DNA of 64,000 nucleotides from Opitutaceae bacterium. GTDB taxonomy: Bacteria; Verrucomicrobiota; Verrucomicrobiia; Opitutales; Coraliomargaritaceae. Each line of letters opens with the position of its first letter. Position 1 is the first letter of the stretch. Shown here piece after piece: positions 27,301-30,145 of this stretch. Location of the stretch: contig JBPOFY010000012.1 in the NCBI GenBank assembly GCA_051252375.1, forward strand, positions 10,675 through 74,674. Reading direction: 5' to 3'. Position numbers and translations under genes: made by a program. The notes below the pieces were generated by a model. The model did no database searches. It was not told where the DNA came from and saw only the letters and a list, made by a program, of their open reading frames with translations.

Positions 27301-30145
27301 GCTCGGGGGTGCCTTCGACGATGATTTGACCGCCGGCAGTTCCGGCTTCGGGACCAAGTTCGACGATCCAATCGGCGACTTTTAGAATGTCGAGATTGTG
27401 CTCGATGACGATGAGTGAGTTGCCTGCGTCGACGAGACTTTGGAGGACGCCGATCAGACGCTTGACGTCTGCGCGGTGCAGCCCAGTGGTGGGCTCGTCG
27501 ATCAAAATCATAGTATGATTTTGGTAGGGACGGCTGCCCTCAGCCGTCCGCTTCTTTGACCTGACGGACGCTTGGGGGCAAGCGTCCCTACCTTTGGCTA
27601 TCTTCCCCAGATAGCTGACTAGCTTCAGACGTTGTGATTCGCCGCCCGATAGGGTGTTCAGCGGTTGACCGAGTTTGAGATAACCGAGGCCAACATCGAT
27701 CATGGGTTGGAGGCAGCGCGTGATCTTAGGGTATTCACCGAAAAAGAGGAGTGCTTCGTCGATGTCGAGCTCGAGGATGTCGGCGATAGTGCGGCCGTTG
27801 AAGTCGATTTCGAGGACTTCGGCTTTGAAGCGTTGTCCTTCGCAGGTTTCGCAAGGCACGAAGACGTCGGAGACGAATTGCATCTCGATACGTTCGAAGC
27901 CGAGGCCCGAGCAAGTGGGGCAGCGACCATCACCACTGTTGAAGGAGAAGTGACCGGGTCCCATGCCGGCCGAGGCGGCGGCTTCGAGTTGAGAGAAGAG
28001 TTTGCGAATCTCGTCCCATGCCTTGGAGTAACTGGCAGGGTTAGAGCGGGGTGTTTTACTGACAGGGCTTTGGTCAATTAGGACGACATCGGATAGCGGA
28101 AGCGTTGATTCGATGTCTTTGATTACCGCGGGGTCTTCGACAGTGAGCCCTTTTTGCGCTAGTAGGTTTTGGTAGATGACGTTATTGAGCAGCGTGGATT
28201 TTCCGGATCCAGAGACACCGCTTAGGCAAACAAAACATTGTTGGGGTATGTGGACGGTGAGGTCGCTGAGATTGTGCTTTGTGGCAGCAAAAACGCTGAG
28301 CGTTTTTGATTGAGTAGGCGCGCGACGTGTCTCTGGCGTCTCGATGTCGTCTCGACCTGAGAGATAGCGACCAGTGTGCGTGTCGGATTTTAAGATTTGT
28401 TTGTAGCTGCCGTGGAAGGTGAGCTGACCGCCGTTGATACCCGGTCGAGGACCGATCTCGATGAGGTTGTCAGCAGCGCGCATCACGGCTTCGTCGTGTT
28501 CGACGACAACGACGGTGTTGCCGAGGTCTGTGAGTCGGCGAAGGATGCCGATGAGGCGATCCATGTCGCGCGGGTGAAGACCAACGGAAGGCTCATCAAG
28601 CACGAAGAGCGTATCAACAAGCGAGGATCCGAGGCATGAGGTTAGATTGACGCGCATCGTTTCACCGCCGGAGAGCGTGCGGGAAGTGCGGTCGAGGGTG
28701 AGGTAGCTGAGACCGACTGCGTCTAGAAAGCTGAGGCGGGAAAGTATACCTGCGAGGGCTGTGTCATCGTTGTGGTAGGGACTGCTGCCCTCAGTAGTCC
28801 GTTTGTTGGATGTGGCGGACGCCTGAGGGCAGGCGTCCCTACCTAAGAGGTTGAGTAGCTCGCCGACACTTTTTTGGTAGAGTTCGGGGAGAGTGTGCCC
28901 TTGCCATTTCCAGTTTAGTGACTCGGGCTTTAGGCGAGCCCCGTTGCATTTAGGGCACTTGGTGTAGCTGCGAAATTTAGAGAGGAAGACGCGGACGTGC
29001 ATCTTGTAAAGGTTGCCGTTGAGCCAATCGAAGAAGCGGCGGACGCCATACCATTTGCTTGCGTCGGGTTTGTAGCTCGGGTCGCCATCCATCACGAAGG
29101 CGAGTTCCTTTTTGTTGAGTTTGGAAAATGGAATATGGGTGCGGACTTTATGCTTCTTGGCTGCACGCTGCAGGTCGCGCAGGCTCTCGCTATAGACTTC
29201 TCCATGGAATGCGCGGATTGCGCCGTCATCAAGGGACTTTCTGTGGTCGGGGATGACTAGGTTGTAATCGATCTCAATGACTCGTCCGAAGCCACGACAT
29301 TCGGCGCAAGCACCGATGGGTGAATTGAAGGAGAATAGTGCGGGTGCAGCTGGGCGAAAAGTCTGTCCGGTTTCGGGGGAGGTGAGTCCGTGTATGAACT
29401 CGGTTACGGGTTTTGCATCTGTATCCAAAATATGGATATGTCCGTTCCCAAATTGAAAAGCTGTCTGTAGGGCTTCAAGTGTGCGGGAGCGTGCCTTGTC
29501 GTCCAATCTCGCGATGCGATCTTGGACGACAAGGAGTGGGGAGTGAAGAGCGGGGAGTGGGGAGTTGAGATCCGAGATGCGGGTCACTTTGTTGCCTACG
29601 ACGACTCGACTGTATCCTTGGGCTGAAATTGATTGGATGATTTCGTCCCAGCTGAGTTTTTCCGGTTTGGTGACAGGGAAGGTAATGAGGACGGTTTGCC
29701 CTTTTTGATCTTTGCTGAGTTTCTTCCACGCGCTTTGTGGGTTGTCGTCTGTAATGGCTTTGCCTGAGGCCGGGTCGTAGAGTGTGGCGACGTTGGCAAA
29801 CCAGACCTTAAAGTAGTCCGCTAGCTCGGTGATGGTGCCGACAGTGGAGCGAGAGGTTTTGACCGTATTGGATTGATGGATCGCGATGGAAGGGCGGATG
29901 TTTTCGACGCTATCAACCTTGGGGCGGTCGAGTAGATCCATGAATTGCCGAGTGTAGGGCGAGAAGGTCTCGACGTAACGACGCTGCCCCTCGGCGTGTA
30001 GGGTCTCGAATACGAGCGAGGATTTGCCTGCGCCGCTTAGACCCGTGACCACCGAGAGTTGTCCAATTGGCAGATTGAGATCGAACCCCTTCAGGTTATT
30101 TTGGCGGACGCCTCGTAGGCGGATACATTCTTTGGATTTTGGCAC
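24347..30145 (-). CDS. Tandem UvrA-UvrA fusion (excinuclease ABC subunit A paralogue, four ABC sites)
   Basis: One 1932-aa ORF (GTG start). Four Walker A motifs ([36 protein letters not shown]), four LSGGE signatures and four Walker B motifs ([40 protein letters not shown]), plus Zn-module Cys pairs. Module 2 begins [14 protein letters not shown]. Confidence 0.9.
25172..25274. repeat. Family A heptamer-arm palindromic element, copy A1 (inside the UvrA-UvrA CDS)
   Basis: The arms GAAGGTCGAACTTCCAACGTCCAACTTCGAACTTTGAAT and ATTCGATGTTGAGCGTTCAGCGTTCGATGTTCGACGTTCCTTC are imperfect reverse complements built of 7-nt units. Translated as [13 protein letters not shown]...[10 protein letters not shown]. 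Confidence 0.7.
26063..26086. repeat. Family A solo arm, copy A2 (inside the UvrA-UvrA CDS)
   Basis: GGGAACGTTGGACGTTGAGCGTTC, translated ERSTSNVP. No partner arm was found by eye in the ~100 nt flanking each side. Confidence 0.5.
27103..27250. repeat. Family A heptamer-arm palindromic element, copy A3 (encodes the inter-module linker of UvrA-UvrA)
   Basis: Left arm GGGAGAACGTTGAACGTCCAACGTCCAACTTCGAATCTTGA (27103-27143); right arm TCATTCGACGTTGAATGTTCGACGTTGGACGTTGGACGTTCCCC (27207-27250); 63-nt spacer. Confidence 0.75.
27523..27592. repeat. Family B 70-bp double-hairpin element, copy B1 (inside the UvrA-UvrA CDS)
   Basis: GGTAGGGACGGCTGCCCTCAGCCGTCC-GCTTCTTTGACCTGAC-GGACGCTTGGGGGCAAGCGTCCCTACC. 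Outer stem GGTAGGGACG/CGTCCCTACC and two perfect 9-bp inner hairpins. Confidence 0.75.
28774..28843. repeat. Family B 70-bp double-hairpin element, copy B2 (inside the UvrA-UvrA CDS)
   Basis: GGTAGGGACTGCTGCCCTCAGTAGTCC-GTTTGTTGGATGTGGC-GGACGCCTGAGGGCAGGCGTCCCTACC. Same length, ends and orientation as B1. Confidence 0.75.

Follow-up and report, generated by a model that had tools for sequence, protein, structure and literature searches.

A probable GTAG-type REPIN lying in frame within a predicted surface loop of a tandem UvrA from an Opitutales bacterium

Doublets of repetitive extragenic palindromes (REPs) that form hairpins, or REPINs, are mobile DNA that is not autonomous and depends in trans on REP-associated tyrosine transposases (RAYTs; HUH/Y1), which recognise the hairpin in single-stranded DNA. 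Ogata and colleagues, in Science in 2000, are said to have reported Rickettsia palindromic elements (RPEs), which reportedly sit in frame in essential genes, sometimes several to a gene, and appear in the proteins as surface loops that spare the fold. An inverted REP doublet folding into one hairpin is what defines a REPIN, and classical REPINs are nearly all extragenic, with only 14 of 1,067 16-mers overlapping genes in strain SBW25 (Bertels & Rainey 2011; PMC3116915). Intragenic GTAG and CGTC REPs have already been described (Di Nocera, De Gregorio & Rocco 2013, BMC Genomics 14:522; PMC3733652): GTAG REPs, single or dimeric, there interrupt known genes in frame and add 20-30 residues to the products, and intragenic REPs are enriched in replication and repair genes; the authors argue that repair genes in particular are hit more frequently than chance allows. 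Both uvrA genes of Opitutus terrae carry REPs in that study, Oter_2709, an excinuclease A of 1995 amino acids (aa), having one REP alone at aa 638-644 and two as a dimer at aa 1601-1623. Intragenic REPs are also equated there with the palindromic elements of Rickettsia, RPE-4 and RPE-6 being placed in the CGTC-tagged superfamily and not with GTAG (PMC3733652). Here we describe a 70-bp element in a uvrA gene of an Opitutales (Verrucomicrobiota) bacterium that is very probably a GTAG REPIN, inserted without loss of frame, which the protein would tolerate as a disordered loop. It occupies positions 27523-27592 (minus strand) of the window, by which we mean the whole stretch of 64,000 nucleotides (nt) analysed (assembly GCA_051252375.1, contig JBPOFY010000012.1, positions 10,675 to 74,674); positions in the host genome are given below in window coordinates.

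On the plus strand the 70 nt of the element read GGTAGGGACGGCTGCCCTCAGCCGTCCGCTTCTTTGACCTGACGGACGCTTGGGGGCAAGCGTCCCTACC. Its termini are inverted repeats of 10 bp without a mismatch, GGTAGGGACG / CGTCCCTACC, and the interior holds two perfect 9-bp stems, GGACGGCTG/CAGCCGTCC and GGACGCTTG/CAAGCGTCC, with 4-nt loops. Arm 1 (27523-27550, plus strand) is GGTAGGGACGGCTGCCCTCAGCCGTCCG, a GTAG head with its 9-bp stem and 4-nt loop; arm 2 (27565-27592, minus strand) is GGTAGGGACGCTTGCCCCCAAGCGTCCG as read on that strand. Both arms follow the pattern G-GTAG-GGACGNNTG-NNNN-CANNCGTCC, and the stem of arm 2 shows compensatory changes relative to arm 1. Each arm therefore has the anatomy of a GTAG-tagged REP, a 5' GTAG followed directly by an imperfect palindrome of 20-40 nt, and the two arms with their spacer form an inverted doublet that can fold into one long hairpin; on these grounds we identify the element as a REPIN.

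Folding calculations agree with this anatomy. As RNA of the gene's strand, the element has a minimum free energy of -45.7 kcal/mol, compared with -23.6 +/- 3.3 kcal/mol for dinucleotide shuffles (z = -6.6; an equally good fold in 0 of 200 shuffles), and as DNA it reaches z = -6.1. The minimum-energy structure is a single extended REPIN hairpin, with the two-hairpin form as an alternative. A search of the whole window at the Rfam gathering thresholds found no known RNA family at 27523-27592. Of the six reading frames through the element exactly two are free of stop codons; both run on the strand of the gene, and one of the two is the gene's own frame. A preliminary description of this DNA, made from the sequence alone, had reported the 70-bp element, its two perfect 9-bp hairpins and the count of open frames, and all of these were reproduced when we reread the sequence and recounted the frames.

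The host gene (24347-30145, minus strand) is intact and encodes a tandem (double) UvrA of 1932 aa. Pfam recognises UvrA_inter (in two stretches), UvrA_DNA-bind and ABC_tran in the open reading frame (ORF), and UvrA chains in the PDB match the protein at E = 1e-144. These matches agree with the make-up of UvrA, in which a module has two ATP-binding cassette (ABC) nucleotide-binding domains (NBDs) with Walker A, signature and Walker B motifs, together with UvrB-interaction and DNA-binding insertion domains. An alignment of 62 UvrA sequences shows no variation at the Walker A, signature, Walker B and H-loop residues, and the ratio of nonsynonymous to synonymous substitution rates (dN/dS) against the closest orthologue, P0001, is 0.16. 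The gene is under purifying selection and appears to be functional, in line with the intact frame reported earlier.

Within this protein the insert takes up codons 852-875 (27521-27592), that is, the 70-bp REPIN plus 2 nt (27521-27522), and the ORF translation gives 24 residues of the GRDACPQAS...RTAEGSRPY type. It lies in NBD-II of the N-terminal module, between the ABC signature LSGGE (residues 832-836; 27638-27652, minus strand; invariant in the 62 aligned sequences) and the Walker B strand MILIDE (MILIDE/ILIDEP; residues 879-884; 27494-27511, minus strand; D883 and E884 invariant), where the earlier reading had placed it. The equivalent loop of module 2 (residues ~1850-1870) has a near-invariant native extension of ~17 aa, which these tandem UvrAs conserve and which is not a repeat element; the position between signature and Walker B therefore tolerates extra length.

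To see how such an insert might be accommodated, an AlphaFold2 model was made of residues 1-965, the N-terminal module (mean predicted local distance difference test score, pLDDT, 80.7; predicted template modelling score, pTM, 0.70). pLDDT falls below 50 at residues 852-874 and 437-459, matching the peptide of the element (852-875) and that of a second REPIN in the same gene (436-459; see below), and neither segment has predicted secondary structure. The flanks of the insert are modelled with confidence as a helix (834-853) and a strand (878-883); confidence is also low at residues 1-4, 55-100 and 752-761. The insert bridges the far, C-terminal end of this 20-residue helix, which begins at the signature motif, and the N-terminal end of the Walker B strand. 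Given how the ABC fold is built, both joined ends should lie far from the nucleotide, and the insert would for that reason be near the catalytic motif in sequence but not in space; the closeness that the preliminary description had stressed does not carry over to the model. Modelled with the insert in place, the module has a predicted disordered loop between confident flanks, and we predict the REPIN peptide to be a hydrophilic, disordered surface loop of 24 residues facing away from the ATP site. At the insertion position, UvrA structures that have been solved show a loop of 6-7 residues, reading ELSRKSTGKTMYILDEP, which bears out the short loop expected of canonical UvrA, and the alignment to 9gxk_A is interrupted precisely where the insert lies (query 1-252 and 271-363).

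The repeat is not confined to this gene. A scan with the pattern GTAGGGACGNNTGCCCNCANNCGTCC, one genome per species, recovered the REP at at least 104 loci, in Opitutales metagenome-assembled genomes (MAGs), Cerasicoccus maritimus, Coraliomargarita, other Verrucomicrobiota and members of the Planctomycetes-Verrucomicrobia-Chlamydiae (PVC) group, Kiritimatiellota/Pontiellaceae and Terriglobia, with many loci per MAG in related genomes. Since blastn of the window against these loci found no overlap, none of them is the window locus itself. Allowing up to three substitutions, they contain 157 REP hits, arranged as 36 convergent doublets of 54-120 bp and 85 singlets; the doublet spacers run from ~0 to 65 nt and are unrelated in sequence between copies. 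Of 128 exact hits, 117 have Watson-Crick pairs at both stem positions that the search pattern leaves free (~8 expected by chance), in 11 pair combinations. Compensatory substitutions thus keep the hairpin across copies, and this covariation identifies the hairpin itself as what is conserved. One locus in Cerasicoccus maritimus contig11 (L079, 268-1198) has three near-identical 84-bp REPINs every 423-424 bp, a tandem array of REPIN-containing units.

Most copies of the family avoid coding sequence, as 19% of the REP elements lie in long open frames compared with 60% of random segments from the same loci. Of the 23 elements that do, 7, in 6 ORFs, were confirmed to lie in real host genes, while several of the rest resemble chance ORFs in GC-rich Terriglobia DNA; at least 7 of the 121 sampled elements (~6%) are accordingly in frame inside genes. 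The hosts are ValS, RNase HII, an NDP-sugar dehydratase, an M3 peptidase, PurL (twice) and an ABC ATPase; the ValS insert, in Cerasicoccus maritimus (L009), reads GRDDCPQSS...RTVEGNRPY. Genic REPs are usually read in the frame GRDxCPQxS / RTxEGxRPY and less often as VGTxAxxRP. The 15 nt outside 156 REP heads contain no strong target motif, only a G at -1, which is part of the palindrome, and A/T at -2.

A transposase can be placed beside this REP in another phylum. In a Pontiellaceae MAG (L068; Kiritimatiellota), a gene for a protein of 155 aa has on both sides a REP identical to arm 1 at 27 of 28 positions. The protein passes the NCBIfam equivalog NF047646, REP-associated tyrosine transposase, at 89.9 bits (cutoff 80), and its JGI name is RayT; Pfam Y1_Tnp scored it just below threshold (22.6, cutoff 23), and NF047646 settled its identity. 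Its flanking REPs, at 3230-3350 and 3840-3950, each have a REP of a second type (GGTAGGGCGGTCTGTCCCCAGACCGCC) as partner. Many MAGs of Terriglobia (Acidobacteriota) share this REP head. The presence of one REP in several phyla indicates cross-phylum distribution or horizontal transfer. Two RAYT homologues, P0162 (an Opitutae MAG; NF047646, 93.4 bits) and P0182 (Cephaloticoccus; 79.6 bits, marginally short of the cutoff of 80), have flanking REPs with a GGTAGGG head but different stems. From this association we infer mobilisation by a RAYT in the present genome as well.

The orthologous loop in related proteins shows the site both with and without an element. The orthologue set comprises the best 120 homologues, all tandem UvrAs of Opitutales of 1817-2078 aa. 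About 45 of the 120 keep a short, "empty" loop of 4 residues, GK(V/I)A-EKSG-HA-LILIDEP (GKVAEKSGHALILIDEP), and in P0004 (L114) the empty allele is seen at the DNA level as GCA GGT AAG TCA GGC (GCAGGTAAGTCAGGCCAT; GCAGGTAAGTCAGGC), the empty-site sequence being GTCGCAGGTAAGTCAGGC; empty sites, which the preliminary description had suggested looking for, are therefore present. The closest orthologue, P0001 (its protein 89% identical by BLASTP and 92.7% over aligned residues, its aligned codons 90% identical in nucleotides), is without the element; another short insert, NKGSQITKHGS, takes its place there. Other orthologues have their own REPs in the same loop: in P0026 and P0029 it is a REPIN that belongs to the same family but to another loop subfamily (GGACGCCTCGCCGAAGGCGTCC), and in P0002 a singlet of yet another GTAG REP (GGTAGCGGCGCGGGTCCCTCCGCGCC). 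The element is thus present and absent at orthologous sites, as expected of mobile DNA, and its peptide at 852-875 is not conserved among orthologues, contrary to what a native peptide without hairpin potential would show. Because the stems are perfect and the copy is specific to this lineage, it is taken to be a recent arrival. Because P0001 carries a different insert at the site, the exact inserted unit is only presumptively 70 nt plus 2.

Peptides typical of further palindromic families occupy the same loops in other orthologues, for example NSPPSQGGV.../NSPSAKEGLTSSPSQSG, EGNAPSLP...GSNDGALPS, VGVPPLGG...RPPKGGTP and RIPNPGSRTTN. In the tandem-UvrA alignment the loops concerned lie at residues ~183, 443, 609, 850, 1161, 1236, 1356 and 1627-1655 of Q, the window UvrA, and the range in protein length (1817-2078 aa) results from such peptides in the loops of various orthologues.

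A second REPIN of the same family, 83% identical, lies in frame in uvrA at 28774-28843 (minus strand), where it encodes residues 436-459 in the loop before the NBD-I signature. The head motif has four matches in the window (0.06 expected), and these make up the two elements; a scan of the window for GTAG followed by a hairpin returned five (0.55 expected). This second copy is common to P0001, P0002 and P0004, has a 21-nt in-frame internal deletion in P0001, and survives as relics in P0021, P0029, P0040 and P0052. It is older than the copy at 27523-27592 and is already decaying by in-frame deletion.

Taken together, these observations suggest the following course. One REPIN copy, moved by a RAYT acting on its hairpin, would have inserted into the codons of the surface loop between the post-signature helix and the Walker B beta-strand of NBD-II, in the N-terminal module of the tandem UvrA of this Opitutales bacterium. 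Because the added length would be 72 nt and the frame taken has no stop codon, the gene would have stayed open. The insert would then decay by in-frame deletions, like the older copy at 28774-28843. Most likely it is a tolerated, near-neutral passenger, a neutrality that we infer.

Several observations weigh against this account. There is no RAYT in the 64-kb window, where phmmer with an E. coli YafM query matched no ORF, and no extragenic copy of this REP family, both window copies being genic and inside uvrA. Nor does a very close relative offer a clean pre-insertion allele, since P0001 has its other insert. Neutrality in particular is challenged by the distribution of indels. Comparison of the window with the syntenic locus L105 (uvrA at 10001-15640) gives 17 gene pairs, and uvrA holds 11 of the 12 gap openings; the other 16 pairs are 92-100% identical and free of gaps except for one of 3 aa. 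Every uvrA indel maps to a palindromic element. With both window copies also in uvrA, targeting of the gene or selection on it could be responsible.

The alternative that survives best is accordingly that the insertion is not neutral: the REPs would change excision repair (for example ATPase cycling, with a mutator-like effect), or a hairpin in the mRNA would tune translation or stability, or uvrA would be a preferred target of transposition. Besides the concentration of indels at palindromic elements of uvrA, about ten loops of the tandem UvrA contain insertions of 8 aa or more in 24-43 of the 120 orthologues, and three different REPs, in Q, P0026 and P0002, begin at one junction, ...A/GGTAG (the slash marking the junction; compare window 27590-27600). 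GGTAAG in the empty P0004 allele resembles the REP head GGTAGG, a likeness of sequence that suggests possible target mimicry. The argument that repair genes are hit beyond chance (PMC3733652) points the same way. On the other side, the insert peptides are unconserved, decay by in-frame deletion and are predicted to be disordered, and the same REP is found in unrelated housekeeping genes. Moreover, UvrA is long, modular and rich in variable loops, and for this reason tolerance alone could explain the indel excess. On balance we consider a non-neutral or targeted insertion unlikely, although the indel excess, the ~10 insert-bearing loops and the shared junction speak for targeting or selection. 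We are equally doubtful of a more explicit proposal, in which the loop between signature and Walker B would be a landing pad for RAYT-mobilised REPs, its Gly-Lys codons (GGTAAG) mimicking the GTAG head, different REP families repeatedly integrating, or replacing one another, at the same nucleotide, and the concentration of REP indels reflecting targeting of or selection on uvrA and not mere tolerance.

A conventional miniature inverted-repeat transposable element (MITE), which has terminal inverted repeats and would be moved by a DDE transposase independently of any RAYT, would share the perfect 10-bp terminal inverted repeat and the small size of the element, and would be at ease with a window that has no RAYT. 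It would not be expected to lack a consistent target-site duplication, yet three copies are bordered by AAA/AAA, TTA/ACA and CAA/CAC respectively; nor does it account for spacers of ~0-65 nt that are unrelated between copies, for the many single arms, for the GTAG head or for the RAYT gene flanked by a near-identical REP in L068. We rejected the MITE reading as very improbable because the missing target-site duplication, the variable spacers and the common singlets fit REP singlets and doublets instead. That the insert is a native, lineage-specific UvrA loop with a coincidental palindrome, or part of a decaying pseudogene, has next to no probability: the window does hold only two copies, both in uvrA, but the DNA motif recurs in intergenic regions and unrelated genes of many genomes, folds at z = -6.6 and is missing from P0001, and the ORF is intact, with invariant catalytic motifs and a dN/dS of 0.16.

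The window contains further repeats. A second inverted-repeat family (family A), with arms such as GGAACGTCGAACGTCGAACGTCCAACGTTCAA built of 7-mers, has copies at 25172-25271 and 27107-27247 in uvrA and at 47921-48050 between genes, with a possible relic at 26060-26080. In uvrA it is translated as ...RTSNVE(H/R)STSN...SKLDVG(R/S)STF; one of the in-gene copies is part of the linker joining the two UvrA modules, and P0001 is without parts of both. A different GTAG REP-like hairpin, GGTAGGGTTCGTTATCCTTAACGAACC, at 16821-16847 (plus strand) comes directly after the TAG stop of ORF 15235-16821, in a convergent intergenic region where a second small hairpin follows, a placement typical of extragenic REPs. 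At 58039-58092 and 60518-60571 lie the two copies of a 54-nt direct repeat, 98% identical and 2479 nt apart. The sole Rfam matches in the window are two tRNA genes (62457-62527 and 62654-62725, plus strand).

The reading we prefer, a tolerated in-frame REPIN, presents selfish palindromic DNA turned into part of a protein, with a young, perfect copy and an older, decaying one in a single gene, and illustrates how surface loops of essential enzymes gain length. For annotation, it accounts for the unusual low-complexity peptides (GRDACPQAS..., RTAEGSRPY) and for the 1817-2078 aa range of verrucomicrobial UvrA. For REP biology, the shared junction, the near-identity to a RAYT-locus REP of another phylum and the uvrA indel excess provide handles on target choice and on RAYT-dependent transposition, which is still unproven.

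Compared with RPEs, the elements described here are alike in being mobile palindromic repeats in frame in essential genes and translated as surface loops; RPEs reportedly differ in having unrelated sequences, in being longer (RPE-1, ~100-150 bp) and in being confined to Rickettsia. The likeness to REPIN-RAYT systems extends to the inverted doublet and spacer in one hairpin, the dispersed copies, a single-copy RAYT gene with the same REP (as seen in L068) and the size, 70 bp here and 71 bp for the GI REPIN of P. fluorescens (PMC3116915). The difference lies in placement, with at least 7 of 121 sampled elements and both window copies in frame within genes. The closest precedent is Opitutus terrae, whose Oter_2709 is the same type of tandem UvrA, from the same order, with GTAG REPs in frame. 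The in-frame insertion in uvrA that the preliminary description had thought unusual is therefore not so for this clade (PMC3733652). The O. terrae REPs are nonetheless distinct: the peptides of GTAG-17/-18/-19 are GTGVPPV, HGRDARAT, VGPALAAG and the like, against GRDACPQAS...RTAEGSRPY here; they occupy other sites in UvrA, against the signature-Walker B loop of NBD-II (module 1) and the loop before the NBD-I signature; and the present host is an uncultured marine relative of Coraliomargarita/Puniceicoccaceae. Because in-frame GTAG REPs in uvrA were published in 2013 (PMC3733652), this is no new kind of system, but a new REP subfamily, new sites and a new host for a phenomenon already published in the same gene family and bacterial order. 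What may be modestly new is the repeated, independent use of one nucleotide junction in the loop, together with the concentration of indels in uvrA.

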